Positions 1 to 53,387 of a stretch of DNA of 64,000 nucleotides are shown here, one piece after another. The stretch is taken from contig JANQFH010000068.1 in NCBI GenBank assembly GCA_028277945.1, positions 272,400-336,399 on the forward strand. The letters are read 5' to 3'. A program made the position numbers and the translations under genes. The stretch's first letter is position 1; each line of letters begins with the position of its first letter. This DNA comes from Oligoflexia bacterium (GTDB lineage Bacteria > Bdellovibrionota_G > JANQFH01). The notes under the pieces are model-generated. The model made no database searches. It was not told where the DNA came from and saw nothing but the letters and a program-made list of their open reading frames with translations.

Positions 1-68
1 GACTATCTAGAGTGTCTGTAGGTTGAGATAAAAGAAAATCACCCAATCTCTTTCCTGTCAAGCAACTA

Positions 69-1678: not shown

Positions 1679-2536
1679 TTACTTTTGTGCCTGGTTGCTG
1701 TCAATCGCGCTTGGCTGGTTTTCTTTTGCATATAAGGGGGTTATGTTTTGTCCCTGCAGTAGAGACCAGGCGCCGACCTCTCTAAGGTGCTGCTGTTTTG
1801 CCCAACCTTTATGTTCCTGCCTCGGCCCGGTGGCAATCTTCCACCAAGCTGGTTTTTTCTCCAAGATGGTAAAGCTTGCCCCTTGGCCCAGCTTGAGGAT
1901 GGGGATGAAGTCCACTCCCCTTCCAGAGCGTAACTCCACGGTTGGTGCAACTACGATGCCCTCTGGCTGCTTCAGCCGCCAGCTTGCAATCAACAGGGAA
2001 ATGCACAGTGGTAGGTAAACGGCGAGGCCGGTCGCAAAGATATTGAGCCAAGCTCTTCTGCCAATCCACGGTCTTAAAGCGATGATGAGAAAGAAAGCTA
2101 GATGCACTAGAAGGGTTACGAACAACAGAGTGCGTAAGGAGGTATGGTGAATCCAAAAGAAGATGTTCTCAAACCAAGGTCGCGATTCTTCAGTGGTAAG
2201 CTTTAGCTTGTCAGCAAGTGTCTCTATGTTGGCTTTGAGGTCTTGGTCATTTGGAATAAAGAGCTCTGCCCGTCTGTACTGCAACATGGCCATGCCATAC
2301 TCACCAAGACGAAAGTGGCAGTTACCAAGGTTATAGAGGAGATGGCCATTGCTCGAACCTTGCTTGGCCATCTCTGTTAAGGCCTGTTGGTAGTGCCTCT
2401 TGGCCATGGCAAACTCTCCTTTGGCATAGGCCGTCTCGGCCTCGCCAATCTGTAGTGCCACGGGAGTGGCCCACCCTAGTTGAGCGAATATGAGCGCAAG
2501 GTTGCAGCATATCAGTAGAGTAAGCCTTGGTTTCAT
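1679..2536 (-). CDS. TPR-repeat protein with N-terminal signal peptide and C-terminal TM region; last gene of the Bat-type operon (BatC/BatE-like)
   Basis: 285 aa. Signal-like N-terminus, TPR-like helical repeats ('AYAKGEFAMAKRHYQQAL...LYNLGNCHFRLGEYGMAMLQYRRA'). 4-nt overlap with the upstream gene (2533-2536). Confidence 0.5.
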   Translation of the reverse strand: MKPRLTLLICCNLALIFAQLGWATPVALQIGEAETAYAKGEFAMAKRHYQQALTEMAKQGSSNGHLLYNLGNCHFRLGEYGMAMLQYRRAELFIPNDQDLKANIETLADKLKLTTEESRPWFENIFFWIHHTSLRTLLFVTLLVHLAFFLIIALRPWIGRRAWLNIFATGLAVYLPLCISLLIASWRLKQPEGIVVAPTVELRSGRGVDFIPILKLGQGASFTILEKKPAWWKIATGPRQEHKGWAKQQHLREVGAWSLLQGQNITPLYAKENQPSAIDSNQAQK

Positions 2537-4404
2537 TTGGTTGCCTTATGGACAATATGAATAGATTTCTTTGTCCTTGCTATGAGTCCGTCAAGATGAT
2601 CCCCTGCACTTTTGTCGCTATGGAGTCCAAGGCGCGATACTTCAAGGTCGTGAAGCAGATCAGAAACCTGTTGCAGTTTTTCCTGTGTCAGAGAGTACTC
2701 TTGCAGAGCTCTCTGCAACTCCTCTTCGGTAACCAGGCCCGTAGGTAGCAACAGCCGCTCTTTCAGGTATTCACTGAAGGTGGTGTAGAGTTCTTCGTAG
2801 GTCGAGCGATCTTGTGCGGGTCGTTTTCTTGTTGTTCGCTGCAACACTTGCAGTCGCTGCCTCGCTCTTTTGGCAGCACTTTTTCTTAAACGGTCACGCA
2901 GGGTCGTGGGATCTTTACGACTCGCTGCACCTATAGCTAGAGAGCCGATGGCGATAAACAACGGCAGCAGCAAGAGGATGAGTACAAACGGTGAGGTTAG
3001 CCGCACACTTTGGCGGTCGCGTGTCTCGATTCCCGTGTGATTAGGCAGGATGTCTACAGCGAGCCGTTGCAGCTTACGGCTGGACAGCGGTGTCTGTACG
3101 GTGTCGCTAGCTGCGAACCCCCCGGAAGTTACGGTGTCTTCATCGGCAGCAGGAGTAACTCGGAAGTTTAACGAGTTGGTTGTCGCTCTTTTGTAGGTGG
3201 CGCTCTGTGGATCAAAGTAACTAAAGCTCAATGGCCCAATGGTGAGCTCGCCCTCTTCTAGAGGTACGATGGCACTCTTAAGACTACGGTATTGCAAGAG
3301 GCGATTGTTGCCAGCCTGTTTTGTCGCTTGAGTTGAGACCACAGGTTTGTCATCGTAGCGTTTAAAGCGGGTGGTTTCGCTCCACTCCGAAACAATGTCA
3401 CGTTTTAGGTTGATAGTTCCGCTTAACTCTGTGGTGACCGTTAGGGAGCTACCCTTAGCGATTTCGCGTATACCCTCAGGAGCGGAAAGCTGAGCACGCA
3501 AGCTGCCCACAAGCCCAGAGAAGTCTGATGGCTTGCCTGCCGTGGGTAAGGGTAGTACTTGGATGGTGTGTGGCTGGCTCGCTACGCTCACGGGTTCGCG
3601 AATGCCGACGTTAAAGAAAGGATCGCGGAAAAAACGGTTGAAAAAATCATCGCGACTGCCTTGTGCCCGGACAATATGAAAGTCGAAGTATGCTGGGCTG
3701 ATGGTCAACTTACCTGGCTTGGTGGGATAAAAGGCCTTTTGCAAGCTGATAACTCGATAGAGCTGGCCTTTTACATTCTCGGCACTGTTGGTTGCTTCAC
3801 CCATACTCTCGGCCCAAAAACCCTCGACCTCGGGTCCCGACAACTTTACGTCGTGGATCTGCGGTTGGTAGTAGAGGCGTAACGTATAGATAATCTGTTC
3901 GCCTACATAGGCGCGTGTTTTATCAACAGAGGAGCCGGTAAAATAGGCCGTCGTACTTGCGGCGTTATTTTGGGCGGTGGTGCGTTCCTGCACTGCAAAG
4001 GTTAGCGGTTGGCTGTGATAGGTCTTGCCCTGGTACTGCACACGAATGGGGTCTATGGTGAAGGTTCCCGGTCGCGACGGTATGAGCGTGTAGGCATACT
4101 GTTTGGCGATAGATTGGCGTCCGTTGACGATGGAAACGCTGGTGGAGGTAGAGGTCGATGTAAGACGGAAGTCCGCAAGCTCCGGAAGTTTAGGGTCGCT
4201 CGTTTCCTGGACGCCTTGCACCTCAACCACGAGCCGCATGACTTGGCCGACAACGGGGTTGGTCGGTTCGATACGCGGGTTGATCGTCACCGTCTGTGCC
4301 AGCAGCGCCGTCGGTGCCCACAAGCCTATGAGCAGATAGCACCCCATCTGCGGTTGCCATAACCCTCGCATTACCAATCCTCTGTTGGTGTACGCTTCTT
4401 CCAC
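2533..4404 (-). CDS. BatD-like large secreted/membrane-anchored protein (oxygen-tolerance operon component)
   Basis: 623 aa, signal peptide, C-proximal TM segment ('FVLILLLLPLFIAIGSLAIGAA') followed by a charged tail. Sits directly downstream of the VWA genes, as in Bat operons. Confidence 0.5.
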   Translation of the reverse strand: MEEAYTNRGLVMRGLWQPQMGCYLLIGLWAPTALLAQTVTINPRIEPTNPVVGQVMRLVVEVQGVQETSDPKLPELADFRLTSTSTSTSVSIVNGRQSIAKQYAYTLIPSRPGTFTIDPIRVQYQGKTYHSQPLTFAVQERTTAQNNAASTTAYFTGSSVDKTRAYVGEQIIYTLRLYYQPQIHDVKLSGPEVEGFWAESMGEATNSAENVKGQLYRVISLQKAFYPTKPGKLTISPAYFDFHIVRAQGSRDDFFNRFFRDPFFNVGIREPVSVASQPHTIQVLPLPTAGKPSDFSGLVGSLRAQLSAPEGIREIAKGSSLTVTTELSGTINLKRDIVSEWSETTRFKRYDDKPVVSTQATKQAGNNRLLQYRSLKSAIVPLEEGELTIGPLSFSYFDPQSATYKRATTNSLNFRVTPAADEDTVTSGGFAASDTVQTPLSSRKLQRLAVDILPNHTGIETRDRQSVRLTSPFVLILLLLPLFIAIGSLAIGAASRKDPTTLRDRLRKSAAKRARQRLQVLQRTTRKRPAQDRSTYEELYTTFSEYLKERLLLPTGLVTEEELQRALQEYSLTQEKLQQVSDLLHDLEVSRLGLHSDKSAGDHLDGLIARTKKSIHIVHKATK

Positions 4405-6095
4405 ATCTTGAGCTGTAATGCCTTTTTGAGTGCTTCGCGACCATCTTCTTCAACGGTAGCAAGCCACTGTTTGGCCTCTTCTGCAGCAAACTCCTTTTCT
4501 GTGTCCGGTTGCTTTTCTGCTGCGTCACGGCTTGACTCATCTGGGCGATCCCTTGTCTGTTGATCAAGACCTTGCTGTTGCTGCCGTTGCTCTGGGCTAT
4601 CCTCAGGTTTCGGTTGCTGCTGGGATGATGGCTCGGATTCCTCGTTTTGTTCTTGCTGGTTGTTTTGCGGTTGCTTTTGTTGCTGCTCAAGGAGCTTTTT
4701 TGCTAGCTCGAGGTTGTGCTTTGCCTCTCTGTCATCGGCGGCAAGTTTCAGTGCCTGTTCGTAACTATCGATAGCCTCTTGATAGCGCTGTTGGCGAAAA
4801 AGTGCATTGCCACGATTATAGAATGCCTCTTGCTTGAGAAAGGGGTCTTGGGTATTGCTCGCTCGGCTGAATGCTTCTGCCGCCTCAGAAAATTTTCCCA
4901 AACGGTAGTAGGCGTTGCCGCTGTTGAAGTGAATGGCGGCGTTGTCTGGATCATCTACCTGACCCCGGGCAAAATTTTGCAGCGCCTCGGCATACTGCTG
5001 GTTGTTGTATGCTTCGGTGCCCTGGCTCAGGGGTCCAGCAATCAGCGATTGCGGCGCAAGTAGAGGCGTTAACAGTAAGAGGGCCGCGAGCTGTTTCTTT
5101 GCCGGCGTTCTGGCAACCATGCCCTGCTGGAGTAGAAACAGCAGAATGGCACCAAGCAAGAAGATTTGATAGCGCTCATAGTACTGTTTACGCCGTTCCT
5201 GCCGCAAGTCGCTGTCACCAAAACGTCTACCAATGCCTTGTTCATACACTTGCTGTAGATCAAGGTCTCCAGCCACCGACCGGACATAGCCGCCGTCTGT
5301 CTGTGTGGCGATCTCTCTTAAGACGGTCTCGTTGAGCCTGGTGAGAATCACGTTACCCTGCTGGTCTTTACGAAAACCACTGCCATTTGCCGTAGGTATA
5401 GGAGCACCAGTAGGTGAGCCAATACCAACGACAAAAATCTTAACCTCTGCATCATTGGCTTTTTTTAGCGCACTCTGTAACTTTTGCTGATGGTCTTCAC
5501 CATCTGTGATCAGCAGGATACTCTTTTGGCGTGGACTCTGCGGTTCAAATCCCGCCACTGCTGTCTCAATGGCGCTGCCGAGATTTGTGCCCTGGACTGG
5601 AATGAGATCGGTATTCAGGTAGTCGAGAAATATGCTGAAGGACTCTAAATCGTGCGTCAGCGGACAGAGTATATGACTCTCACCAGCAAAGGCCACTAGG
5701 CCGATGCGCTCACCCTGCAATACTTTTAACAGATCGACAATTTCGCGTCGGGCCCGTTCTAATCGAGTTGGCTGGAAGTCGGTGGCCCGCATACTATCGG
5801 AAACATCTACCAATACAAAGAGATCGCTGCCCCTATCACGTACTTGCATCCACTGAAATCCCCACTGCGGTCGGAGAAAGGCGAAGAAGAGCAGGACCAT
5901 GGCAGAAAAACCAACGACTGCCTGCCACCTGCGCAGTTGCGGCCGAAACCGCGGCAGAATCTGCCGCAGGATTTCTGTCGTGGCAAGTTTCTGCAGAGCC
6001 TTCTGTTGTTGTAAGAGACTGTAAATCAGGATCATCCCCAGCACTAACAGTAGCCATGAGTAGATGAGGAATGTGCCATTAGCCAAACGCATCAA
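4371..6095 (-). CDS. VWA-domain + TPR protein (BatB-like) with Q/E-rich low-complexity C-terminal tail
   Basis: 574 aa. N-terminal TM segments. VWA MIDAS-like 'DVSDSM'. TPR-like repeats ('YNNQQYAEALQNF', 'FNSGNAYYRLGKFSEAAEAF', 'YNRGNALFRQQRYQEAIDSYEQAL'). C-terminus 'QQQKQPQNNQQEQNEESEPSSQQQPKPEDSPEQRQQQQ'. 4-nt overlap with the upstream gene. Confidence 0.7.
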   Translation of the reverse strand: MMRLANGTFLIYSWLLLVLGMILIYSLLQQQKALQKLATTEILRQILPRFRPQLRRWQAVVGFSAMVLLFFAFLRPQWGFQWMQVRDRGSDLFVLVDVSDSMRATDFQPTRLERARREIVDLLKVLQGERIGLVAFAGESHILCPLTHDLESFSIFLDYLNTDLIPVQGTNLGSAIETAVAGFEPQSPRQKSILLITDGEDHQQKLQSALKKANDAEVKIFVVGIGSPTGAPIPTANGSGFRKDQQGNVILTRLNETVLREIATQTDGGYVRSVAGDLDLQQVYEQGIGRRFGDSDLRQERRKQYYERYQIFLLGAILLFLLQQGMVARTPAKKQLAALLLLTPLLAPQSLIAGPLSQGTEAYNNQQYAEALQNFARGQVDDPDNAAIHFNSGNAYYRLGKFSEAAEAFSRASNTQDPFLKQEAFYNRGNALFRQQRYQEAIDSYEQALKLAADDREAKHNLELAKKLLEQQQKQPQNNQQEQNEESEPSSQQQPKPEDSPEQRQQQQGLDQQTRDRPDESSRDAAEKQPDTEKEFAAEEAKQWLATVEEDGREALKKALQLKMWKKRTPTEDW

Positions 6096-7093
6096 GGAAT
6101 CCTCCGCAGCGCCGTACTCTCTGTTACCATAACACAGGCCATGAGCAGCAGTGCTGGCATAAGCAGGGTGGCAAAGAGGTCCGTATACTGATGATGTTCT
6201 TTGAACTTGATCTCTGTTCTTTCAAGCGCATCGATCTGGGTGTAGATTTTCCGTAGGGACTCTGTGTCCGTGGCATGAAAATAAAGACCGCCGGTGGTGA
6301 AGGCGATCTCTTTGAGCAGTTCTTCATCAAGTTCTAAACGCCGATTCACCATACGCGTGCCAAAAAATCCCTCCACTGGAAAAGGCACGGGTTCATCCGA
6401 GCCGACGCCAATCGTATAGATCTTGATGCCCAAAGCCTTGGCCATCTCAGCTGCCCTCTGTGGTTCAATGTCACCAGCGGTGTTTTTGCCGTCGGTCAAC
6501 AAGATCATGACTTTGGACTGTGACGTAGAGGATTCCAGCCTCTTGCTAGCCACTGCAATGGCGGAACCCAGCGCGGTACCCCGACCTGCCATGCCAATGA
6601 AGATCCAATCCATAAACCGCTGCAGGATTCGGTGGTCTAGAGTTGGCGGACATTGCGTGAAGGCGCTTTCGCCAAAGACAACAATGCCTATCCGGTCTGC
6701 CTCTCTTCCCTTAATGAAGTCGGCAGCGACCTGTTTGACGATAGTAAGCCTATCTTGACGTTTGTCACCAGAGACAAAGTCCATTGCCTGCATACTTCCT
6801 GATGTATCCAGGGTTAAGACAATATCAACACCCTCTGTGAGTCGTTCGATTTCGGTAGTTCCAGATTGCGGCCGTGCAAGGGCGATGATCATCAAGCTTA
6901 AAGCAGCAAAACGCAGGCTTGTTAGCACAGCAGCGGTAATCCGTGGACGTTGCGAGGCGTGTGGTTTGAGCCACTGCAACGTCGGTAGGTAGAGTGCCGC
7001 CGGCCGATGCCTTCTTCGATAAAACAACATGAGTGGTAACAGCAAGAACAGTGCAAAAGCCCAGGGAGATGCAAAGTGTAAATTAGAAACCAT
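6092..7093 (-). CDS. VWA-domain membrane protein (BatA-like)
   Basis: 333 aa. N-terminal TM helices, then a VWA fold with 'DTSGSM' MIDAS motif and 'LLTDG' motif. Confidence 0.75.
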   Translation of the reverse strand: MVSNLHFASPWAFALFLLLPLMLFYRRRHRPAALYLPTLQWLKPHASQRPRITAAVLTSLRFAALSLMIIALARPQSGTTEIERLTEGVDIVLTLDTSGSMQAMDFVSGDKRQDRLTIVKQVAADFIKGREADRIGIVVFGESAFTQCPPTLDHRILQRFMDWIFIGMAGRGTALGSAIAVASKRLESSTSQSKVMILLTDGKNTAGDIEPQRAAEMAKALGIKIYTIGVGSDEPVPFPVEGFFGTRMVNRRLELDEELLKEIAFTTGGLYFHATDTESLRKIYTQIDALERTEIKFKEHHQYTDLFATLLMPALLLMACVMVTESTALRRIP

Positions 7094-7097
7094 GGCC

Positions 7098-7613
7098 TTA
7101 CTGCCTCTCCCCTATTGGCCGATGTCCTTCGGCAATCTCGTGCATGCTCTTTTCTACCCATTCCATATCATGGCTACTCGGTTGATTAGAGGCATACTTC
7201 ACAGGATCGATAACAGCGAAAAGACGACGGATTGTTGTCATCTCAGCATCGGAAAAATAGTAAGCGCGTTGCAATTGCTGCAGGACCTCTTCACTGGTGC
7301 GATCGGTGGCGGGGAAGCGGTAGCGGCGTTCGATATATTCACGGAAGAGAAAGCTGAGTTGATAACAGTGCTCTACTCGGCTCAAGTTTTTTGTCGTGAG
7401 CCCTTCCATGGCGGCGATGAACCAATGGTAAGGATCGATCTCTTTGGTCAAGATTGTGCTGGTCTGTTTATGATGCCGCCAGCGCCACCATAGAAATATG
7501 ATAAGGGTTATAACGATGACCAGGGTTATCACCAGCCAGAGCCATAGCAGACTACTATCCTCTAGTGGGATAATGGGTCGAATGTCATAGATATCCTGTG
7601 GCTCTTGGTTCAT
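7098..7613 (-). CDS. small membrane protein of the Bat/MoxR operon (DUF4381-like)
   Basis: 171 aa with one strongly hydrophobic TM helix ('LWLWLVITLVIVITLIIFLWW'). Lies between the DUF58 and VWA genes and is coupled by a 4-nt overlap. Confidence 0.45.
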   Translation of the reverse strand: MNQEPQDIYDIRPIIPLEDSSLLWLWLVITLVIVITLIIFLWWRWRHHKQTSTILTKEIDPYHWFIAAMEGLTTKNLSRVEHCYQLSFLFREYIERRYRFPATDRTSEEVLQQLQRAYYFSDAEMTTIRRLFAVIDPVKYASNQPSSHDMEWVEKSMHEIAEGHRPIGERQ

Positions 7614-8488
7614 CGTTTTTTTTCCCGCTGGTGAAAGAAAGCCGCCAATACCTTCATATAGTCTTGGGTGCTATCGACAAATAGGCAGTGACCTCCAGCA
7701 CGATGGAGCGTCTGCTTTAAGTTTTCATTTTTACGTCGCAGTTGCAGCTGTAGTTGCTTCTGCAAACCTCTATTGCGCGTGTCTATGAGTAGGGATTCCC
7801 CGCTTTCCGGATCTTCCAGTTGGACAAGCCCCACTGCCGGCAATCCTCCCTCCATAGGATCTCGAATCGTAATACCGATGAGATCGTGCTTTTTTGCAGC
7901 AATGGTAAGCGGTTGCTGAAAAGGTTTGGGGTCTATGAAGTCCGAGAGCACAAAGACCACGCCGCGTCTAAGCAGCAGCTGATTGAGAAAGCGTAGTGCC
8001 CTGGCAATGTCGGTTTTTTCACCGCGAGATTCAAACTGTAGGATTTCGCGAATGACTCGCCAGACGTGACCACGCCCCTTTTTTGGTAGGATGAAGCGCT
8101 CAACGTGATCGGTGAAGAGAATCAAGCCAACGTTGTCGTTGTTCTTGATCGCGGAAAAGGCGAGAATAGCGGCAAGTTCGGCAATGAGATTACGCTTGAG
8201 CGGACCCTTGGAACCAAAAATACCCGAAGAACTCATATCCGCGAGTAACATAACGGTAAGTTCGCGTTCTTCTCGGTAAATCTTAATGTAGGGCTCACCC
8301 AGTCTAGCGGTGACGTTCCAATCGATGTCGCGTACATCGTCGCCAGGAACATACTGGCGCACCTCTTGAAATTCCATACCCTTGCCACGAAAAGCCGATT
8401 GGTAGCTTCCCGCGACAGAGGCATTTACAAGGTGGTTGGTTTTGATGTGAATCTGTCGGACCTTACGTAGCAGCTCCGGGGACAGCAC
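7610..8488 (-). CDS. DUF58-domain protein (MoxR-associated)
   Basis: 292 aa. Canonical position immediately downstream of the MoxR ATPase. Conserved 'FRGKGMEF...REY..GDD.R.IDW' block typical of DUF58. Confidence 0.7.
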   Translation of the reverse strand: MLSPELLRKVRQIHIKTNHLVNASVAGSYQSAFRGKGMEFQEVRQYVPGDDVRDIDWNVTARLGEPYIKIYREERELTVMLLADMSSSGIFGSKGPLKRNLIAELAAILAFSAIKNNDNVGLILFTDHVERFILPKKGRGHVWRVIREILQFESRGEKTDIARALRFLNQLLLRRGVVFVLSDFIDPKPFQQPLTIAAKKHDLIGITIRDPMEGGLPAVGLVQLEDPESGESLLIDTRNRGLQKQLQLQLRRKNENLKQTLHRAGGHCLFVDSTQDYMKVLAAFFHQREKKR

Positions 8489-8513
8489 AGTTACTCCTCC
8501 AGACGCGCACGCC

Positions 8514-9575
8514 TCAAGGCACGTCGATACAATCGAGAATTTTTTGGATGATCTGGTCTGTGGTTAACTGCTCAGCCTCAGCCTCGTAAGTCAGGATGAT
8601 ACGGTGACGTACCACATCTGGAAAGATGTTTTTAACATCCTGAGGTGTGACAAAGCCACGACCGCGTAGCAACGCAAGCGCTCGGGCAGCACGGTTCAGG
8701 TTGATGCAAGCTCGTGGAGAGGCACCAAATTGGATATAGGCAGCTATATCAAGCTGAAACTTTTCTGGTTGCCGTGTTGCACTGACAAGGTCGAGAATGT
8801 AGTTTTTTACCTTTTCATCAATGTAGACACTGTCGAGGAGTTGCTGGCCGCGCATAATGTCGTTCTTATCGATGACCGTGTTTACTGTGGGTGTCTCCTT
8901 CATGCTCATGCGTTCCATAATGAGCCTCTCTTCATCTCGGCTTGGATAGTTGACGACCAACTTCATCATAAAGCGGTCTACCTGTGCCTCTGGAAGCGGA
9001 TACGTGCCCTCTTGTTCGATGGGGTTTTGCGTTGCCATGACAAAAAAAGGTGTTGGCAGAGAAAACGTTTCACTACCAATGGTAATCTGACGCTCCTGCA
9101 TGGCCTCCAGCAGAGCCGACTGTACCTTGGATGGGGCGCGGTTGATTTCATCGGCAAGAATGATGTTTGCAAACAGCGGTCCCTGTTTAACGCTAAAGTC
9201 TCCGGATTTAGGGTTAAAAATCTGTGTGCCCACAAGGTCCGATGGCAACAGATCGGGTGTAAATTGGATGCGTTGAAAATCGGTATCAATTGCTGTGGCT
9301 ATGGTCCGGACGACTGTCGTCTTGGCAAGTCCTGGTACGCCTTCAACGAGGATGTGTCCATCAGCAAAGATTCCCACAAGTAAACGTTCGATCAAATAGT
9401 TTTGCCCGACAACAACTCGTGAAATCTCTGCTGTCAACCGCTTAACAAACTCTATTTCGGCAGCGATCTCTTCGGGCTTTTTAATGTTGGTCGCACCCTG
9501 CTGTGTCTGCACGGTTCTCTTCCTCCTTACGATACCTTCCCACCTGTACTCTGGCCGCACGGATGAGTCGGCCAC
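8514..9575 (-). CDS. moxR: MoxR-family AAA+ ATPase
   Basis: 353 aa. Walker A 'GVPGLAKTT', Walker B 'ILADEINRA', and 'VVGQ' N-terminal motif. The annotated start overlaps grpE by about 95 nt, and an internal GTG (Val22) is an alternative start. Confidence 0.85.
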   Translation of the reverse strand: MADSSVRPEYRWEGIVRRKRTVQTQQGATNIKKPEEIAAEIEFVKRLTAEISRVVVGQNYLIERLLVGIFADGHILVEGVPGLAKTTVVRTIATAIDTDFQRIQFTPDLLPSDLVGTQIFNPKSGDFSVKQGPLFANIILADEINRAPSKVQSALLEAMQERQITIGSETFSLPTPFFVMATQNPIEQEGTYPLPEAQVDRFMMKLVVNYPSRDEERLIMERMSMKETPTVNTVIDKNDIMRGQQLLDSVYIDEKVKNYILDLVSATRQPEKFQLDIAAYIQFGASPRACINLNRAARALALLRGRGFVTPQDVKNIFPDVVRHRIILTYEAEAEQLTTDQIIQKILDCIDVP

Positions 9576-10684: not shown

Positions 10685-11515
10685 ATGACGGTGGTCGCGG
10701 ATCTGCATATGCATAGTACCTACTCCGATGGTGTGCTCAAGCCGGAGGAGCTCTGCCGTCAGGCAGCGCTCAAGGGTTTGACGCATATCTCGATTACCGA
10801 TCACGACAACGTCGAGTTCTATATAAAGGATAGGTTCACCTCTTTGACGCAGCAGTTTGCCATAGGCATCATTCCCGGTGTGGAGTTGAGCTGTCTGCAC
10901 AAGGACCGTCCCATGCATCTACTCGGCTATGGTTTTTCTCTTCAGGACAAATCGCTGGCGACAGTCTTGGGGCAGCAACAGCAGCACCGCCTGGAACGCG
11001 TTCGCCTCATTCTCGACAAACTCAACAGCTTGGGCGTGCCGCTTACACTCGAAGAGCTGGAAGACGCAGATGGCGCCACGACCTATGGAAGGCCTCATGT
11101 AGCCCGTGCGATGATGCGTGGGGGTTATGTGGGCTCCGTTGATGAGGCGTTTGCGCGTTATCTGGGCAGAGGCAAGCCAGCATACGTGCCAGCCGCGCAG
11201 CTCAAACTCATCGACGCTATTGAATTGGTTCGTAATGCCGGAGGGGTTGCCGCGCTCGCTCACCCTGGTCTCTACTACGGTGATGTGGAACAGGCCGCGG
11301 AGTTACTGGATCTGGGGCTGCAGGCCATAGAGGTCTCTCACCCTGCTCACAGTAGGACAGTGACACGACAGTGGCGGCAGTTTTGTCAGCAGCACGGTCT
11401 GGTGATGGCCGGCGGCTCTGATTTTCATGGCGATGACAAACCACCCCGTTCGATTGGTCAGCACGGGCTCAATGGCGTTGAACTGGAGAGCCTTAAGGCT
11501 CTTTTCAATGGCTAG
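10685..11515 (+). CDS. PHP-domain phosphoesterase (TrpH/YciV-like)
   Basis: 276 aa. N-terminal '[10 protein letters not shown]' and 'HISITDHD' PHP metal-binding His motifs. Confidence 0.75.
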
Positions 11516-11568: not shown

Positions 11569-12645
11569 ATGGGTAAGGAGATCACCTATAAGGAATCCGA
11601 TCTGGTGAAGCTAACCGCGTACGCCAGATCTGGCGGTTGAGCGGCTAAGTTAGGTCCGGAGGATCTACGTGAGATTATTCGCGGCGTCGATTTCCCAACG
11701 GTGCCGCAGCTCTTAGTAGGCGCCCAAAGTGGCGATGATGCAGCAGTGTATCGAATCGACGACCATCAGGCGTTGATCCTTACTGCCGACTTCATCACTC
11801 CGGTCTGTGACGACGCCTTCCTCTATGGACAGGTGGCGGCGAGCAATGCCATGAGTGATGTCTATGCTATGGGCGGCAAGGTTCTGCTTGGTATTAACAT
11901 CTGCGCCTTTCCCGCGAAGAAGTTGCCACGGACAACCTATCAGCAGATTCTTCAGGGGGCTGCGGACAAGATGCAGGAGGTCGGCGCCGTTGTAGCGGGC
12001 GGTCATACGGTTAAGGATGACGAGTTGAAGTACGGTCTTGCTGTGGTAGGCAGGGTCGATCCGCAGAAGCTTGTCACCAACGCGGCTGCCAGAGTTGGCG
12101 ACAGGCTTCTGCTTACAAAGCCGGTTGGTGCGGGTGCTGTTCTCGCACACGCAAACAAGCGCAAAAATGGCGAGAGACGGTTTGAAGCTGTATTCGAGAG
12201 TATGTGCCTTCTCAATGAGGCAGCAGTGACGATCATGCATGACGAGACCGTGCACGCATGTACGGATGTGACCGGTTTTGGCGTTGCCCTGCACGCGGCG
12301 CAGATGGCAGAGGCTTCGGGTGTCGGGCTGGAGATCTATGCTAGCAAGGTGCCACAATTCAATGGGGCGCTCGAGCTTATCGATGAGTTTGGTCTGCCAG
12401 CGGCTGGTACTAGTAACCGTAAAGCCATGAAGAGCAGGATTCAGGTGGATGAGCAGGTCTCCGAAGCACAGCAGGCGCTGTGTTTCGATCCACAGACTTC
12501 GGGCGGCCTACTTATGAGCGTAGCAGCCGAGGCTGCGGACAAAATCACGGCGCAGTTACGTCAAGCTGGCTATCTGCATGTAGCACAGATTGGCAAGGTC
12601 GTTGCCAAAAACGAGCAGATTTCGCTTTTGCAGCTGAAACCTTAG
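11569..12645 (+). CDS. selD: selenide, water dikinase (selenophosphate synthetase) SelD, a selenocysteine-containing form with an in-frame UGA at 11638-11640
   Basis: The ORF track only gives 11701..12645. Extending upstream in-frame gives ATG 11569 then 'MGKEITYKESDLVKLTAYARSGG-U-AAKLGPEDLREIIRGVDFP', matching the E. coli SelD N-terminus 'LTQYSHGAGCGCK' with Sec replacing the catalytic Cys. The rest matches SelD/AIR-synthase-related signatures ('DDAAVY', 'NAMSDVYAMGG'). Confidence 0.8.
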
Positions 12646-30356: not shown

Positions 30357-32078
30357 CTATTGCAAATACCAGTCTTCTGCTGCTTGCGCTGAATCAAACT
30401 GGTGTCCGGTGATGCGAAATCCCTTGAGGTTCGCAGGGATCACCGCCAACTGTGCCCGGTAGTAAAGCGGTATCACTGGCAGGTTCTTGGTGTACTCTTG
30501 TTGTACGATCTTCATGAGCGCTTTGCGTTTGCTAGGGTCGAATTCCGTGCGCACCTTGTCGAATGCGGCATCTGTGGCACGGTTGCGATAGCCAGAGAAG
30601 TTTTGGCCAGAATAGCCGTTTTCTTTGGTGGGAATAGATTTCGAGTGCAGTATAGAATCGGGCAGATTGCCAGGGCTGGAGATGTTGGCGTACATGGCCA
30701 TGGCTGGGAATTTTCTCTTTGTTAGGGTCTCGCCAAGAAAGACTCGCGGAGGTTCATTTTTGAGCTTGATCTCAATGCCAACTTTTTTCCATTCATTTTG
30801 TAAAAAGACTTGCACCAGCTCACGCGTCTTGTTCTCAGCCGTGGTCATCAAGGTCAGCGATAGGGGCTGGCCAGCCTTTTCGCGCATCTTATTCTTCCCG
30901 AGTTTCCATCCGGCTGCATCCAGGAGCTGGGCCGCCTTTTTGGGATCGTAGGGGTACTTCATGACATCACTAGTATAGTAAGGGTCAAGGGGATGGGTGT
31001 TGTGCATAGCCACGGGTTGTTTGCCGGCAAAGAGAGCCTGGACTAGTTTTTCGCGGTCCACAGCGTAAACCAAGGCACGACGCACACGGATGTCCTTGAG
31101 AATGGGATTGTTTAGGTTCAAGTCTATGTGCTCATAGACCATGCCTTGGCGGTATTTAATTTGGAAACGGTTCTGCAGTTTGCGATCTTTCTCTATGCGC
31201 TTTTCAAGCGCCAAGGCTTGGTCGAATGTTATGCCTAGCTCGCCCACCATATCTATGGTTCCCGAGAGGAGGTTGGCCTCAAGTGCCTGGGTATTGCGGA
31301 TGATCCTGACGATAATCTTGTCAATCTTTGCAGGCTTGCCGTAGAAGTAGGGGTTGCGCTCAAGCACGACGTGGCTGCCGAGTTTGACCTCTTTTATTAC
31401 ATAGGGGCCGTGATAGAGACCTGGGTTGGTGGGGTTACTGCTGTAGGCCGTTTGTTTTTCATAGGCGCCCAAACTGTTTTTGGTCTTCTCCCAAATCGGT
31501 CGTTCAATGTGGTTGGGAAGCAGATAGAAGGTAGCAAATTCATAGTAATCATAGCGTGGTCGATCATAGACGATCGTAAACTTCTTCGGGTTTTTTGGAT
31601 CAATGATGAACGCTTCAACCTGCTCATACTGCTCCTTTTCACCGGTAACCACGTTGGCAGATTTACCAACCTCCCAAGCAAGCTGCATATCGTAGGCAGT
31701 TACCGGAGTGCCATCGCCCCAACGGGCGTCCTTGATAATTTCCCACTGGGCGACCAACTTTTTCTCTCCCTTTTTCTCAACAATCTTCACCAGGCCGTTG
31801 TCAAAGCTAGGCATGACCTTGCATAGATGGCAGTGCCACTGCCAATCGGCGTTGATTGATGTGAGAGTACGGCCTGCCAAGTCATAGATGTAGAGGGCAG
31901 CAGCTGTCTGTGCAATCGTTGCATTGAGCGTCTCAAACTCCGAAGAGATACCTATGGTCAGCTGTTTGTTAGTTGGCAGTGCCCAGCTCGTTTTGCTGCT
32001 CCAGCCAAGCATCAGGAAAGGCATTACAATCAATAGTGTAAAACGAGCGACCTGAAATTTTTCTCGAACAGTTCGCAT
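30357..32078 (-). CDS. ABC transporter substrate-binding protein, family 5 (peptide/nickel/opine type), paralog 1 of 7
   Basis: 573 aa with a signal peptide. Shares with the six paralogs the blocks 'LPTNKQLTIG', 'ADWQWxCxLC', 'WGDGTPVT', 'NPTNPGLY', 'NPHYYGKKPKI', 'IPNTQALEANLLSGTIDM' and 'ITGHQF'. Confidence 0.85.
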   Translation of the reverse strand: MRTVREKFQVARFTLLIVMPFLMLGWSSKTSWALPTNKQLTIGISSEFETLNATIAQTAAALYIYDLAGRTLTSINADWQWHCHLCKVMPSFDNGLVKIVEKKGEKKLVAQWEIIKDARWGDGTPVTAYDMQLAWEVGKSANVVTGEKEQYEQVEAFIIDPKNPKKFTIVYDRPRYDYYEFATFYLLPNHIERPIWEKTKNSLGAYEKQTAYSSNPTNPGLYHGPYVIKEVKLGSHVVLERNPYFYGKPAKIDKIIVRIIRNTQALEANLLSGTIDMVGELGITFDQALALEKRIEKDRKLQNRFQIKYRQGMVYEHIDLNLNNPILKDIRVRRALVYAVDREKLVQALFAGKQPVAMHNTHPLDPYYTSDVMKYPYDPKKAAQLLDAAGWKLGKNKMREKAGQPLSLTLMTTAENKTRELVQVFLQNEWKKVGIEIKLKNEPPRVFLGETLTKRKFPAMAMYANISSPGNLPDSILHSKSIPTKENGYSGQNFSGYRNRATDAAFDKVRTEFDPSKRKALMKIVQQEYTKNLPVIPLYYRAQLAVIPANLKGFRITGHQFDSAQAAEDWYLQ

Positions 32079-32090
32079 GATCCTATTACC

Positions 32091-33797
32091 TCACTTTAGA
32101 TACCAGTTTTCGCTAGAAAAGGGTGACATAAACTGATGTCCGGTAATGCGATAGCCACGCAGGTTTGTTGGCGCAACACCCACAGCCACTCTAAAGTATA
32201 GCGGGATGACCGGCACATTGTTGCTGTATTCCTGTTGGACGATTTTCATCAGTTCTTTACGCTTGTCAAAGTTAAACTCCGCAAGCACGCCATCGAGCGC
32301 AGCATCGCTTGCAGCGCTAACGTAGCCACCATAGTTTTGGCCTGAGTAGCCGTTTTCCTTAGTGGGAATCTCTGAAGAACGCAGCGTTGAGGTGGGAATG
32401 CTCTCTGGACTCATCATCCAGGCATACATGATCATGTGCGGAAAATTCGCCTTACGCACGGTTTCATTGAAAAAGACTCGTGCTGGTTCGTTCTTAATGC
32501 TGACATCAATACCCACCTTCTTCCACTCGTTTTGCAGAAAGACCTGGACGATTTCACGACTCTTGTGTCCTGCTGTGGTCATGATGGTTAGGGACAAGGG
32601 TTTGCCATCTTTTTCGCGAATGCCCTGCTTGCCCATCTTCCAGCCAGCCTCCTCGAGAAGTTGAGCGGCTTTTTTTGGATCATAAGGATAGGTGGTGACA
32701 TCGTCGGTATAGTTGGGATCCAGGGGATGAATCGTATGTAAAGCTTTGGCATGTTTACCGGCAAACAGCGCCTTGACCATCTTGTCACGATCCACCGCGT
32801 GCACCAATGCCCGGCGCATGCGGAGGTCTTTGAGTATGGGGTTGCGCAGGTTGAGATCGATGTGTTCATAGATCATGCCCTGGCGATATTGGACGACAAA
32901 GCGTTTTTTGAGTTTTGGATCTTTTTGAATCCGCTTTTCAATGGCTTGGCCAATATCAAAGCCAAGGCCAATTTCCGCGATCATATCAATGGTGCCAGAG
33001 AAGAGGTTGGCCTCTAAGGTTTGTGTGTTGGGAATGACTTTAAAGATGATCTTTTCAATCTTGGGCTTGTTGCCATAAAAATGGGGATTACGCTTAAGCA
33101 CAACATGGCTGCCGAACTTCACTTCAGTTAGGCGGTAGGGGCCGTGATAAAGTCCTGGGTTGGTTGGCTGAGTAGCGTAGGCGCTCTGCTTTTCGTAGGC
33201 TCCAGGGCTTTCTTTTGTCTTTTGCCAAATTGGCGCTTCAATATGGTGTGGCAGGAGGTAGAAGGTGCCTAGATGGTAGTAGTTAAACCGCGGCTCTTTG
33301 TAGATGGTGATAAACTTCTTGGGATTTTTTGGATCAATGATAACGCGTTCAATCTGCTCATAGATGTCCTTCTCCGGCACAACAACGTTGGGAGATTTAC
33401 CAATCTCCCAGGCGAGCTTAAAGTCGTGCCCCGTTACCGGCGTGCCATCACCCCACTTCGCCCCTGCCTTGATCTGCCATCTCACCTCCAGTTTTTTCTG
33501 CCCCTTTTCTTCAATAATCTTAACCAGACCGTTTTTAAAGGTGGGAAACTCGGTGCAGAGCCAACAGGCCCACTGCCAGTCGGCATTCATTGAGGTCAGG
33601 GTACGGCCGAGAAAGCCGTATATATAGTAGTAGACAGCAGACTGTGAGATGAGGATGTTGAGTGCGTCAAACTCTTGTATGATGCCTATGGTGAGCTGTT
33701 TGTTGGTCGGTTGGGCGGTACTTCTGTGCGGTAGTGCCGTAGCCATGAGAGAGAAGAGCACAACCACCAACAAAGATCTCTGAAACCATGAACGCAT
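32091..33797 (-). CDS. ABC transporter substrate-binding protein, family 5, paralog 2 of 7
   Basis: The ORF track extends to 33875. Met27 at 33797 ('MRSWFQRSLLVVVLFSLMATALPHRSTAQPTNKQ') gives a proper signal peptide and a 10-nt gap to the permease gene. Confidence 0.8.
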   Translation of the reverse strand: MRSWFQRSLLVVVLFSLMATALPHRSTAQPTNKQLTIGIIQEFDALNILISQSAVYYYIYGFLGRTLTSMNADWQWACWLCTEFPTFKNGLVKIIEEKGQKKLEVRWQIKAGAKWGDGTPVTGHDFKLAWEIGKSPNVVVPEKDIYEQIERVIIDPKNPKKFITIYKEPRFNYYHLGTFYLLPHHIEAPIWQKTKESPGAYEKQSAYATQPTNPGLYHGPYRLTEVKFGSHVVLKRNPHFYGNKPKIEKIIFKVIPNTQTLEANLFSGTIDMIAEIGLGFDIGQAIEKRIQKDPKLKKRFVVQYRQGMIYEHIDLNLRNPILKDLRMRRALVHAVDRDKMVKALFAGKHAKALHTIHPLDPNYTDDVTTYPYDPKKAAQLLEEAGWKMGKQGIREKDGKPLSLTIMTTAGHKSREIVQVFLQNEWKKVGIDVSIKNEPARVFFNETVRKANFPHMIMYAWMMSPESIPTSTLRSSEIPTKENGYSGQNYGGYVSAASDAALDGVLAEFNFDKRKELMKIVQQEYSNNVPVIPLYFRVAVGVAPTNLRGYRITGHQFMSPFSSENWYLK

Positions 33798-33807
33798 ACT
33801 TACACTC

Positions 33808-34761
33808 CTAACGTCGGATGGCTTTGGGGTCCAGGGCATCCTGCAAACCATCGCCAAGAAAGTTAAAGCTGACAACCACTAAGAAGATCAAAAAGCCAGG
33901 GATAATCACCTGTGATGGGGCGTTGTAGATCACCTCGAGGGCATTGTTGAGCATATTGCCCCAAGACGGTGTTGGCGGTTGGATACCTAGACCCAAAAAG
34001 CTCAGTGCCGCTTCAAAGAGAATGGCCTGGCCGACATTGAGGGTGACCGAGACGATTACCGGGGAGAGAACATTGGGTAACATCTCTCGTACGATAATAC
34101 CAAAAGAGCTCTCACCGCTGATCTTTGCCGAGAGAATGAACTCCTGCTCGCGGATGGCAAGCACCGCACTGCGCACCAGGCGTGCCTGCACCATCCAGGA
34201 GAAGACGATGAAAATGAGAATCATTTTGATGACACTAGAATCCTCGCCCTTAAGAAGCTCTGATAACAGGGGCAGTTTGCTAATATCGATGGCTGCCAAG
34301 ATAATCAGAATCGGCAGAATCGGCAGGGCTAGTAGGGAATCGGTTAGCCGCATGAGCGCATGGTCGATAAAGCCACCATAGTAACCAGCCACCGTACCGA
34401 CGACAATGCCAATCAACATCGAGGCTCCAGCGGAGACAAACGCCACCATCAATGAGATGCGGGTACCATAGACCAAGCGGATGAAGACATCGCGTCCAGC
34501 CTCGTCGATTCCTAGCCAGTTCTCCCGGCTCCAAGGACCGTAGCGGCTGAGGATGTCTTGAGCGCTGGGATCAAGTCCGGTCATCTGGGCGATGAGATCT
34601 GCTCCGATTGCAACTAGACAGAAAAATCCGATGATAAAGAGACCAACCAGTGCCAGGCGGTGTTCCATAAAGCGTCCCAGAACAATCTGAAACATGCTCT
34701 GGACGTGGCCACTGGGTTGTTCAAAATCGTCGTTCTCAAAGGTTTTTGTTGAGGTCGCCAT
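33808..34761 (-). CDS. ABC transporter permease (OppC/DppC type)
   Basis: 317 aa. N-terminal TM segment, then a polytopic body with the binding-protein-dependent permease motif region ('...LGLGIQPPTPSWGNML...'). Confidence 0.85.
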   Translation of the reverse strand: MATSTKTFENDDFEQPSGHVQSMFQIVLGRFMEHRLALVGLFIIGFFCLVAIGADLIAQMTGLDPSAQDILSRYGPWSRENWLGIDEAGRDVFIRLVYGTRISLMVAFVSAGASMLIGIVVGTVAGYYGGFIDHALMRLTDSLLALPILPILIILAAIDISKLPLLSELLKGEDSSVIKMILIFIVFSWMVQARLVRSAVLAIREQEFILSAKISGESSFGIIVREMLPNVLSPVIVSVTLNVGQAILFEAALSFLGLGIQPPTPSWGNMLNNALEVIYNAPSQVIIPGFLIFLVVVSFNFLGDGLQDALDPKAIRR

Positions 34762-34778
34762 TTTGTACTCTGCGATCG

Positions 34779-35753
34779 CTATTTAAAAGAAATCCGTGGG
34801 TCTAGATAAGCGTAACAGATGTCTGCCACCAGGTTCATTACTAACACCATGCATGCCGTGATGATGAAGCTACACATGGCGACGTTAAAGTCGTTGCCGA
34901 TGATCGAATCAAACATCAGCTTACCCACCCCTTGGTAAGAGAAGACCGTCTCAGTAATCACCGCACCCGAGGCAATGCGCGGAAACTCCAAGGCGACCAC
35001 GGTAACCACAGGCAGTAGGGCGTTACGCAGGCCGTGTCGGGTTACTACATGGTGCCACGCCAAACCCTTGGCACGCGCGGTACGGATAAAGTCGAGCCGC
35101 ATGGTCTCCAACATGGAGGCACGCGTGTAGCGTATCCAACCGGCAATGGTGAGCGAGGCCAATGTAGCTGTGGGTAGCACCAGGTACTTGGCACGGTCTA
35201 AGAGGTAGGCCCACGTGCCCTGGGTTGCCTCCACGCCAATGGTCTCCACTCCACCAGCAGGAAGCCACTTGAAGAAAACGCTAAAGACGATGATGAGCAT
35301 TAGCCCTAACCAAAAAGAGGGAGCTGAAATGCCTGAGAAGGCAAAGAAGTTGACGATGTAATCAAATTTAGAGTTGGCTTTTAGGCTGGTGAGCACGCCA
35401 ATGGGAATGGCGATAAGCAACGATACGAGGATAACCGTGGCACCGAGGATCATGGTGTTGAGAAGTCGCGGTAGCAGAATGGTCGTCACGGGCTGGCGGT
35501 AGGTGCGCGAGTAACCCAAGTCTCCCTGTACAAAGGCAAATATCCATTTGCCATAGCGCTCATAAATTGGCCTATCGAGTCCTAGCTGTTTTTTCATCAG
35601 ATCTAGATTCTCTGGGGTGCAACGCGGATTGGCGGCACAGGCAATATCGAGCGGATCACCAGGCATCAAGCCCATGAGGCCGTAAGTGATGAAAGAGAGC
35701 GCAAAGAGCACAATCACCGTTTGCAGGAGCCGTCTGATAATATAGGCAGTCAT
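34779..35753 (-). CDS. ABC transporter permease (OppB/DppB type)
   Basis: 324 aa. 'MTAYIIRRLLQTVIVLFALSFITYGLM' N-terminus and EAA-like loop 'YIRTARAKGL', typical of DppB/OppB. Confidence 0.85.
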   Translation of the reverse strand: MTAYIIRRLLQTVIVLFALSFITYGLMGLMPGDPLDIACAANPRCTPENLDLMKKQLGLDRPIYERYGKWIFAFVQGDLGYSRTYRQPVTTILLPRLLNTMILGATVILVSLLIAIPIGVLTSLKANSKFDYIVNFFAFSGISAPSFWLGLMLIIVFSVFFKWLPAGGVETIGVEATQGTWAYLLDRAKYLVLPTATLASLTIAGWIRYTRASMLETMRLDFIRTARAKGLAWHHVVTRHGLRNALLPVVTVVALEFPRIASGAVITETVFSYQGVGKLMFDSIIGNDFNVAMCSFIITACMVLVMNLVADICYAYLDPRISFK

Positions 35754-35754
35754 C

Positions 35755-37452
35755 TTATTTCAGTGCCCATTTATCTGCCGAGAGGGTGGAAAAAAACTGA
35801 TGCCCAGTGATGCGAAAACCCGTTAAGTTGACAGGTACTACCGCAATTTGTGCTCTAAAGTAGAGCGGGATGGTCGGCAGCTCCTTGGTGACCTCCTGCT
35901 GGACGATCTTCATCAGTTTTTTTCGTTTGTTGAAGTCGAGCTCTAAAACAATATCGTCAAAAGCCGCATCGACCTTCTTGTTGACAAAGCCCATGACGTT
36001 TTGACCTGAAAAGCCGTTTTCTTTTCTGGGGATGGAGATCGATTGCAGGATAGATTCAGGGACATTGCCGGGGCTAGAAATATGGGCATACATCGCCATG
36101 GCGGGGTATTTTGCCTTACGTATGGTTTCACCGAAGAAAGTGCGCGACGGCTGATTCTTGATGGCAATGTCCACCCCGACCTTCTGCCATTCATGCTGCA
36201 AGAAGACCTCGACCAACTCACGCGTCTTATCTCCAGCCGTGCTCATAAAACTGAGCAGCAGCGGTTTGCCATCTCTTTCGCGCACACCGTTCTTACCAAC
36301 TTTCCATCCGGCTGCGTCGAGGAGTTCAGCCGCCTTTCTCGGATCGTAAGGGTATTTCGTGACCTCATCCGTAAAGTAGGGATCCAGAGGATGGGTTCTG
36401 TGAGACGCTGCTTGCTGTTTGCCCTCAAAAAGGGCCTCTACGAGTTTGTTGCGGTCAATGCTATAGGTTAGCGCCCGACGGACTCTACGGTCTTGAAGAA
36501 CGGGGTTACGCAGATTAAAATCAATGTGTTCAAAGATTGTACCTTGGCGGTAACTAACACGAAAGCGCTTTTTCAATTCGGGGTCCTTTTCAATGCGCTT
36601 TTCTAGCGCGAGCGCCTGATCAAATTTAATGCCGATCTCACTGATCATATCAATGGTGCCAGCAAGCAAATTGGCTTCCAATGCCTGGGTATTGGGGATG
36701 ATTTTAAAAATCAACTTCTCAATCTTGGGCTTGCGACCATAGTAGTGTGGGTTGCGCACCAGGATGACATGGCTTCCTGCTTTGGCCTCCCTGACCATGT
36801 AGGGTCCCATGGAGAGTCCGGGGTTGGTGGGGTTTGTGCTGTAGGCGGTCTGTTTTTCATACGCCCCCAAGCTGTTCTTGCTCTTCTCCCAGATCGGCCC
36901 TTCAATGTGACTGGGCAATAGGTGGAAAGTGCCTATTTGATAATAGTCGTAACGAACCTTGTGGTATTTCGTTGTAAACCGCTTTGGGTTTTTTGGGTCT
37001 ATGGTAAAGCTCTCGATCTGCTCAAAAACATCTTTAAGACCGACTATGACGTTTTTCGACTTACCCACCTCCCAGGCGAGCTTCATGTCATAAGCGGTGA
37101 CCGGTGTGCCATCACCCCAAGTTGCTTTAGGGTGGATCTCCCACTGCACCAGCAGCTTTTTCTTGCCGTCTTCTTCGATGGCCTTGGCTAGACCATTGTC
37201 TATGGTTGGCAGCTTGGTGCAGAGCCAGCACTGCCATTGCCAGTCTGAATTAATTTCAGTGAGGCCATGCGTAAACAAATAGTAAATGTAGAAGCCACCG
37301 GAATTCTGCGAGATGAGGGGGTTGAGACTGTCGTACTCCTGGGTGATTCCGATAGTTAGCTGCTTGTTGGTTGGCAAGGCATGCGCTAACGGCACCTTCC
37401 ATGCCATACTCAGCAATAATATTAGACTGAAAACGCTTTTGAGTTGTTGCAT
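35755..37452 (-). CDS. ABC transporter substrate-binding protein, family 5, paralog 3 of 7
   Basis: 565 aa with a signal peptide and the same conserved blocks as paralogs 1-2. Separated by 2 nt from the permease gene. Confidence 0.85.
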   Translation of the reverse strand: MQQLKSVFSLILLLSMAWKVPLAHALPTNKQLTIGITQEYDSLNPLISQNSGGFYIYYLFTHGLTEINSDWQWQCWLCTKLPTIDNGLAKAIEEDGKKKLLVQWEIHPKATWGDGTPVTAYDMKLAWEVGKSKNVIVGLKDVFEQIESFTIDPKNPKRFTTKYHKVRYDYYQIGTFHLLPSHIEGPIWEKSKNSLGAYEKQTAYSTNPTNPGLSMGPYMVREAKAGSHVILVRNPHYYGRKPKIEKLIFKIIPNTQALEANLLAGTIDMISEIGIKFDQALALEKRIEKDPELKKRFRVSYRQGTIFEHIDFNLRNPVLQDRRVRRALTYSIDRNKLVEALFEGKQQAASHRTHPLDPYFTDEVTKYPYDPRKAAELLDAAGWKVGKNGVRERDGKPLLLSFMSTAGDKTRELVEVFLQHEWQKVGVDIAIKNQPSRTFFGETIRKAKYPAMAMYAHISSPGNVPESILQSISIPRKENGFSGQNVMGFVNKKVDAAFDDIVLELDFNKRKKLMKIVQQEVTKELPTIPLYFRAQIAVVPVNLTGFRITGHQFFSTLSADKWALK

Positions 37453-37461
37453 AGCAAACCT

Positions 37462-39168: not shown

Positions 39169-39219
39169 GATTTAGACCTCCCGTTACTCAAAATATCCCT
39201 TTTATTCCAAATACCCCCA

Positions 39220-45339: not shown

Positions 45340-45356
45340 AATTCAAGGCTCCTCAC

Positions 45357-51554: not shown

Positions 51555-51967
51555 CGCGCTTCTTTGTAGCGGCTATTTACCCAATGCGCAATGAAAAGCT
51601 ACAGCGATTCAGTGGCTCAGCACAGAGCAGACGACGAATGGGCAGTGTGGCTATGGCTTGGGATAGGACCATGCTAAATAACAGGCTAATACCAAGAGTC
51701 TCATGCGTATTGCCACGAAACTGGATTTTATTACCACACACCATAAGGATTTCCACCAAGCCATTCGTAAGAAAGTTCAATCTCAGCAGCTGAATCGGGG
51801 TGCCATTAGAGTCATCCGTTCCAGTACATTTAGCATTGGCATGCCGGCAAACTTTGACTAGGATCCCTGTCAGCTTTCTAAATGACCCTAATGGCCAACG
51901 ATTTTCTTACCTTAGGTGCGGACGGAGGACATTTGACTCATAGCGCCATCCATGCTAGGAGAGACCC

Positions 51968-53254: not shown

Positions 53255-53335
53255 TCAAAATCTACAGTCTGACAAAACCCCTAATTCGTTAACAATCTCA
53301 ATCAGATTAGTTCATCATATTAATCCAGGTTTTTC

Positions 53336-53372
53336 TTGACAGATCATGCTTGATCATGATAGCCTAAAAGGC
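53336..53372 (+). promoter_or_regulatory. sigma70-like promoter (TTGACA -35) with ATCATG direct repeats / ATCATGAT palindrome overlapping the -10 region; probable antitoxin autoregulation operator
   Basis: TTGACA at 53336-53341. 'GATCATGCTTGATCATGAT' follows immediately. The RBS GGAG at 53379-82 precedes ATG 53388/53391. Confidence 0.4.
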
Positions 53373-53387
53373 CAAGATGGAGACTTA

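Follow-up and report, generated by a model that had tools for sequence, protein, structure and literature searches.

Selenide, water dikinase (selenophosphate synthetase, SelD) ranks among the two bacterial selenoproteins with the widest distribution, and the Escherichia coli enzyme needs both Cys17 and Lys20 for activity. Haemophilus influenzae SelD is an example of a bacterial SelD containing selenocysteine (Sec), and the native residue of Aquifex aeolicus SelD (2yye/2zod) is Sec as well, the crystallised chain having Cys. Among prokaryotic SelD genes 19% encode Sec, always at the same position, and 'selenoprotein genes are usually misannotated' (PMC4561486). Sec-type SelD is found in Deltaproteobacteria, Clostridia and Chloroflexi (PMC1794560). 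Here we describe a selD gene from a 64,000-nucleotide stretch of an Oligoflexia bacterium (contig JANQFH010000068.1 of assembly GCA_028277945.1, positions 272,400 to 336,399 of the forward strand), hereafter the window, in which an in-frame UGA falls within the N-terminal part of the coding sequence. Our analysis indicates, with a probability of about 0.9, that this is a functional selD whose 24th codon, UGA, would be recoded as Sec by the standard bacterial mechanism.

Identity and reading frame of the selD gene

An earlier reading of the window, made from its letters and a list of open reading frames (ORFs) without database searches (the sequence-only reading), had noted that the ORF list starts SelD at 11701 and that the conserved N-terminus is recovered only by reading through a TGA at 11638. 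Direct reading of the frame bears this out. ATG 11569 is the first start codon past an in-frame stop (TAA, 11494-11496), and the frame opened by it crosses the TGA at 11638-11640, joins the mechanical ORF of 11701-12645 and stops at TAG 12643-12645. The read-through translation around the UGA, ...LVKLTAYARSGG-U-AAKLGPEDL..., is as previously given and in its longer form reads MGKEITYKESDLVKLTAYARSGG-U-AAKLGPEDLREII....

For profile searches of the 358-aa product, Cys was written at the UGA position. Membership in the SelD family was judged by a full-length match that exceeds a curated cut-off and takes in the AIRS and AIRS_C domains together with the N-terminal Gly-rich loop, and the product gave such a match. 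It scored 352.6 bits against NCBIfam TIGR00476 (selD, equivalog; cut-off 125), with residues 14-322 aligned to model positions 1-310, and 303.4 bits against NF002098 (cut-off 299). Since position 1 of the TIGR00476 model corresponds to residue 14, before the UGA, the stretch that precedes the UGA belongs to the family model. A phmmer search of PDB sequences retrieved A. aeolicus SelD (2yye) at 5e-60 and E. coli SelD (3u0o) at 4e-59, the latter in an alignment spanning residues 11-346. In these alignments residue 24 falls on Cys17 of the E. coli motif 'GAGCGCK' and on 'RSSGCAAKVGPGDL' of the A. aeolicus chain, in agreement with the earlier proposal that the UGA replaces the catalytic Cys, while Lys27 falls on E. 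coli Lys20, three residues past the Cys17 equivalent. The window protein has D56, D57, D74, N93, D97 and D233, all of them invariant when a small set of relatives is aligned, and the invariant SelD motifs, including DDA, TxDF, NxxSDxYAMGG, GGH and TDxTGFG, are intact. For the conserved Asp and Asn residues at the ATP/metal site, catalytic roles are well established. Judged by these alignments, the selD gene is intact apart from the UGA, and the UGA is placed at the one codon that is known to vary between Cys and Sec within the SelD family.

The public record of this gene is truncated, as the sequence-only reading had expected of automatic annotation. The public protein (P0001; NCBI and Logan sources, 426,222-bp contig) is a 314-aa fragment called from GTG 11701, and the database entry consequently lacks the catalytic N-terminus. 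In at least one relative (locus L083) the gene call is likewise cut at the UGA, beginning at the ATG immediately past the TGA. The correct product would be a 358-aa selenoprotein, which together with the selC gene described below marks the organism as a selenium user.

The homologous codon in related selD loci

A scan of one genome per species yielded 80 loci encoding SelD relatives, with identities of 40-47%. In 61 of the 80 (Chloroflexota, Desulfobacterota-like and other metagenome-assembled genomes) TGA occupies the homologous codon, against TGT or TGC in the remaining 19, so that most relatives of this SelD appear to carry the same recoded UGA. Given these counts, the position of the window's UGA at the Cys/Sec codon is, by sequence comparison, far beyond what chance would be expected to produce. 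A protein search identified the two closest relatives, L083 (50% identical) and L081/L082 (56% identical). In L083 the homologous codon is TGA, preceded by MSVHPTEEQSDLAKLKAYARSGG, and the gene order MoxR-GrpE-...-PHP-selD-folC-folP-folK is common to this locus and the window; in L081/L082 the codon is TGT. Further fragments were sought with the degenerate DNA pattern K-L-x-x-Y-A-R-S-G-G-[TGA/C/T]-x-A-K, which retrieved two more metagenomic fragments (L084 and L085), both with TGA (KLTSYARSGG-U-AAKLSPVDL). Ahead of the UGA, the 23 codons are kept as protein despite differing DNA (KLTAYARSGG, KLKAYARSGG and KLTSYARSGG), and such conservation at the protein level is not the behaviour of a dead N-terminus.

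The identity of the window SelD to its retrieved relatives reaches at best about 44-56%. Searches with SelD and with a radical-SAM protein gave best matches of 45-56% identity carrying Acidobacteriota, Chloroflexota and Deltaproteobacteria names, and with such best identities the source lineage is poorly sampled. A switch between Sec and Cys is seen among near neighbours. The closest relative, L081 (selD at 5001-6047; 1424-2470 in L082), combines a Cys codon with a degraded hairpin, and the next, the fully syntenic L083 (4929-5999), is of the Sec type, as is the window.

Candidate SECIS hairpins

In bacteria, the selenocysteine insertion sequence (SECIS) has been modelled as a hairpin with 3-9 nt in the apical loop and 4-16 bp in the upper stem (PMC13188914, Fig. 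2A), a G within the first two loop positions, mostly in the form N1-G-[G/U]-N-N2, a UGA-to-loop spacing of 16-37 nt and a minimum free energy (MFE) of -7.5 kcal/mol or lower (PMC13188914). The sequence past the UGA was scanned for hairpins of this published form, in place of a whole-region MFE, and two were found (Table 1). Hairpin 1, the best candidate, is 17 nt long and satisfies three of the four constraints, namely loop, stem and spacing. Its loop GGA (11658-11660) is closed by a C-G pair, and the resulting C-GGA-G matches the preferred loop form. The sequence-only reading had suggested folding the region for a SECIS hairpin with its apical loop about 11 nt after the UGA. A SECIS-like hairpin does lie downstream, but its apical loop starts 17 nt past the UGA, and it is the stem that begins at 10 nt. 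How the energy compares with the model depends on the stretch and the energy parameters taken, with -12.2 kcal/mol for both hairpins together and -14.7 kcal/mol for 63 nt.

The hairpins were also compared with those of related genes. Among 64 Sec-type selD genes, 84% have a hairpin that complies with the model at -6.8 kcal/mol or better, while among 20 Cys-type genes the share is 15% (Mann-Whitney p = 1.4e-8, computed on recoding p-values). The contrast recurs in whole-region folding (p = 2e-5). Hairpin 1 stays in register, with pairing-preserving changes, in the four Sec-type sequences closest to the window's; L083, L084, L085 and L003 are among those that keep it (Table 1). The exchange at columns 18-26 links the third position of a Gly codon, where the change is silent, to a second position where it turns Asp into Ala. 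In L081, the closest Cys-type relative (TGT), the helix of hairpin 1 is broken by mismatches. Within 21 Sec-type sequences sharing CCGG at columns 19-22, a subset picked post hoc after inspection of the data, the helix is 83% paired and its covariation is 0.283, compared with 0.172 in shuffles and 0.02-0.13 in slid registers, with none of 500 shuffles reaching the observed pairing or covariation. These comparisons suggest that hairpin 1 is likely the SelB-binding element in the clade of the window, and we infer that SelB would bind it rather than hairpin 2.

The wider Sec-type set, mostly of Anaerolineae type, has a strongly covarying hairpin with a GUN loop at columns 30-36/40-46 (78% paired, 41 double changes, 0/500 shuffles). 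This 7-bp hairpin, GGCGCAG-GUN-CUGCGCC, begins 26 nt past the UGA and encodes LAQVLR (alignment A2 columns 30-46, equivalent to window 11667-11683; loci L004-L078). Other lineages, that of the window included, keep a hairpin 10 nt past the UGA instead. The SECIS thus seems, from these alignments, to sit at different places in orthologous selD genes. Because of the strong covariation near its place in the wider family, hairpin 2 of the window was also considered as the main SECIS; it was ranked second. Its register is off by one relative to the wider-family hairpin, its loop GAUUAU does not start with G-[G/U], and it has no counterpart in the closest Sec-type relative, L083, whereas all four closest sequences keep hairpin 1. 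An auxiliary or alternative SECIS role for hairpin 2 is possible.

Genetic code and selenocysteine machinery

Within the window TGA is the stop codon of 18 of the 44 family-supported ORFs, including folP at 14794, indicating that the organism uses the standard genetic code. The sequence-only reading had placed a selC gene in the window, and both ARAGORN and Rfam recover this tRNA-Sec on the minus strand at the same position. Its acceptor stem has 8 bp, its anticodon is UCA and its variable arm is long. An independently assembled Logan contig (L086), which matches window positions 57268-64000 at 100% identity, also carries the gene, at its end, and adds 7.4 kb of polysaccharide-synthesis genes past the right end of the window. 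A scan for other genes with an in-frame TGA, covering the 64-kb window and hence a small part of the genome, produced no convincing second selenoprotein.

The surroundings of selC have several features of their own. The gene adjoins neither selA nor selB and lies 99 nt from a divergently oriented gene for a TauE/SafE (DUF81) family permease, just past which a small ferredoxin-like ORF is called in L086. At 52-56 kb the G+C content falls from about 0.50 to 0.44-0.45, and the low-G+C ORFs listed in Table 1 have no Pfam or NCBIfam family match. The low-G+C block ends at the tRNA-Sec gene, and L086 breaks exactly at the same tRNA. This block may be a foreign element integrated beside selC.

Proposed mechanism

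The mechanism that we propose takes its steps from established pathway knowledge (PMC13188914, PMC1794560), our own contribution being the sequence features alone. At the UGA (11638-11640), SelB-GTP with Sec-tRNA-Sec, the tRNA being encoded by selC at 57267-57362, would be tethered by the downstream SECIS hairpin, most likely that at 11651-11667, and Sec would be delivered in competition with release factor 2 (RF2). Insertion of Sec at residue 24 would then give a 358-aa selenophosphate synthetase in which Sec24 and Lys27 would lie in the flexible N-terminal Gly-rich loop (SGG-U-AAK) that handles selenium. The enzyme would turn selenide and ATP into selenophosphate, and because SelA requires selenophosphate for Sec-tRNA-Sec, the synthesis of SelD would depend on its own product. 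The sequence-only reading had drawn the same conclusion of an auto-dependent Sec trait; the deduction is correct, yet it describes a long-recognised property of Sec-containing SelD (PMC1794560).

A self-sustaining loop of this type has been suggested for Sec-type SelD (PMC1794560). By extension, the Sec-type SelD could be the main or only selenoprotein of this lineage, with the Sec machinery retained mainly for production of the enzyme that supplies it, although we regard this as unlikely. If true, it would go with a minimal SECIS of 17 nt lying below the usual energy threshold and with a selC gene unlinked from selA and selB, beside a TauE/SafE-family permease and low-G+C ORFs that could not be annotated.

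Evaluation of alternative explanations

Several observations weigh against a Sec-encoding UGA with a downstream SECIS. Hairpin 1 has an energy of -6.8 kcal/mol alone and -7.3 kcal/mol with flanking pairs, just short of the -7.5 kcal/mol threshold, and folding of the 32-63 nt past the UGA against dinucleotide shuffles gave z values of -0.5 to +0.5, so that the hairpin is not exceptional. With a single-sequence z of about 0, stability alone neither confirms nor refutes a SECIS. The whole-region MFE does not stand out from synonymous recodings either (z = +0.35), and a compliant hairpin at least as good arises in 20% of those recodings; together these values indicate that the LGPEDL peptide already predisposes the RNA to the fold of hairpin 1. 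Rfam returned no match and no SECIS family around the UGA even at permissive thresholds, the hits being just chance 10-nt snoRNA fragments. To these are added the post hoc choice of the CCGG subset and the weak covariation of hairpin 1 across all 65 Sec-type sequences. Neither selA nor selB was found in the 64-kb window, in Pfam and NCBIfam scans of essentially all ORFs of at least 120 aa, or in the 7.4 kb that L086 adds on the right, and both genes presumably lie elsewhere in the genome. Finally, the TGA base call at 11638-11640 rests on one assembly. Taken by itself, the single window sequence is compatible with a SECIS and is not proof of one.

Some of these points would favour a pseudogene, in which the TGA is a nonsense mutation, or an error of sequencing or assembly that turned a TGC or TGT into TGA, with no functional full-length protein made from the frame. 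The TGA is seen in one assembly, the sole public gene call is the truncated product and the hairpin alone is without statistical significance. However, a random stop would have had to fall on the one codon of 358 at which SelD homologs carry Sec, a codon that is TGA in most of the relatives, while leaving 23 open and conserved codons upstream and every invariant SelD residue intact, in an organism whose tRNA-Sec would otherwise be useless; a miscalled TGY, for its part, would still yield a functional Cys-type SelD. We therefore consider this explanation highly improbable. The same conserved upstream codons would be left unexplained if the UGA terminated translation and the functional SelD were the annotated 314-aa protein from GTG 11701. 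Both the mechanical ORF list and the public gene call have that start, but the shorter protein is without TIGR00476 model positions 1-44, which include the Gly-rich loop with the catalytic Cys/Sec and Lys, and thus misses the equivalents of Cys17 and Lys20 that E. coli SelD is known to need. A functional enzyme of this length is extremely improbable.

There is also very little likelihood of a read-through without Sec, in which a near-cognate Cys or Trp tRNA, or a reassigned code, would produce a Cys-like SelD with no dedicated Sec machinery. The weak hairpin and the failure to see selA and selB in the window and the adjoining 7.4 kb fit such an event, yet TGA is a regular stop in the family-supported genes of the window, a tRNA-Sec with the canonical anticodon, acceptor stem and variable arm is encoded there, and 93% of SelD-bearing species have SelA and/or ybbB (PMC4561486). 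Recoding of the UGA as Sec remains the explanation that we favour.

Neighbouring genes

Upstream of selD, the window holds a complete Bat/MoxR-type cluster comprising a MoxR AAA+ ATPase, a DUF58 protein, BatA-like and BatB-like VWA proteins, BatD and a TPR protein, followed by grpE. The Bat/MoxR-grpE block is also upstream of selD in L081 and L083, indicating that the neighbourhood is conserved in the lineage. L081 has a gene for an Asp/Glu racemase upstream where the others have the PHP gene, and a periplasmic-binding-protein gene downstream where the others have folC. Further along the window, an Opp/Dpp-type ABC transporter operon contains a tandem set of seven paralogous family-5 substrate-binding proteins (565-594 aa), whose genes surround two permease genes, with two ATPase genes coming after. 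Seven binding proteins is an unusually large set for one transporter.

Table 1 Features of the window and base pairs of hairpin 1 in related Sec-type sequences (pairs are given as alignment columns)
Feature	Position	Strand	Details
selD coding sequence (selenide, water dikinase / selenophosphate synthetase)	11569-12645	+	358 codons plus stop; predicted Sec at codon 24
In-frame UGA, predicted to be read as Sec (U24)	11638-11640	+	homologous to E. coli SelD Cys17
Hairpin 1, best SECIS candidate	11651-11667	+	UAGGUCC-GGA-GGAUCUA; 7-bp stem; -6.8 kcal/mol
Hairpin 2, weaker SECIS candidate	11668-11683	+	CGUGA-GAUUAU-UCGCG; 5 bp; loop starts 32 nt past UGA; -5.4 kcal/mol
Hairpin 1 pair	columns 14-30		window U-A; L083 G-C; L084 U-G
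Hairpin 1 pair	columns 16-28		window G-C; L084, L085, L003 A-U
Hairpin 1 pair	columns 17-27		window G-U; G-C elsewhere
Hairpin 1 pair	columns 18-26		window U-A; L053, L058, L073 G-C
selC, tRNA-Sec	57267-57362	-	anticodon UCA; ARAGORN; Rfam RF01852, 75.3 bits against a gathering score of 47
TauE/SafE (DUF81) family permease gene	57461-58213
Low-G+C block	51900-57460
Low-G+C ORFs	51968-53254, 53984-54898, 55945-56712
Bat/MoxR-type cluster	1679-9575	-
Opp/Dpp-type ABC transporter operon	30357-46433	-
Seven family-5 binding proteins	30357-32078, 32091-33875, 35755-37452, 37462-39168, 39220-40941, 40926-42656, 42641-44341	-
Two permease genes	33808-35753
Two ATPase genes	44338-46433

Comparison with known systems

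The selD gene of the window, whose UGA is almost certainly read as Sec, is a new, mis-annotated example in a well-known selenoprotein family, real but ordinary, and it leaves the understanding of selenocysteine insertion unchanged. In the N-terminal loop its product is nearly identical to A. aeolicus SelD (RSSG-C-AAKVGPGDL, against YARSGG-U-AAKLGPEDL in the window). As in other Sec-containing bacterial SelD genes, the UGA stands at the same codon, with a hairpin after it in the coding sequence; the candidate SECIS of the window differs in being short (17 nt) and at the weak end of the family range, and in many Sec-type relatives the strongest covarying hairpin is located about 16 nt further downstream than hairpin 1. 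E. coli SelD shares the fold family and catalytic motif with the window protein. It is, however, a Cys enzyme whose gene needs neither recoding nor a SECIS, whereas the window enzyme would require the Sec machinery for its own synthesis.

The E. coli fdhF SECIS resembles the candidate in being a stem-loop directly 3' of the UGA within an ORF, with G-G/U opening a small apical loop. The minimal E. coli element reportedly consists of a 17-nt upper stem-loop located 11 nt past the UGA (Liu et al. 1998). In contrast to fdhF, the window candidate is without the bulged U or an obvious extended lower stem, and its loop is GGA rather than GGUC. Eukaryotic SEPHS2 and archaeal selenophosphate synthetase (SPS) likewise have Sec at the homologous active-site position and depend on their own product (PMC4561486), but these systems employ a SECIS in the 3' untranslated region together with SBP2/EFSec or archaeal factors, while the window gene carries a candidate hairpin of the bacterial, in-ORF type.

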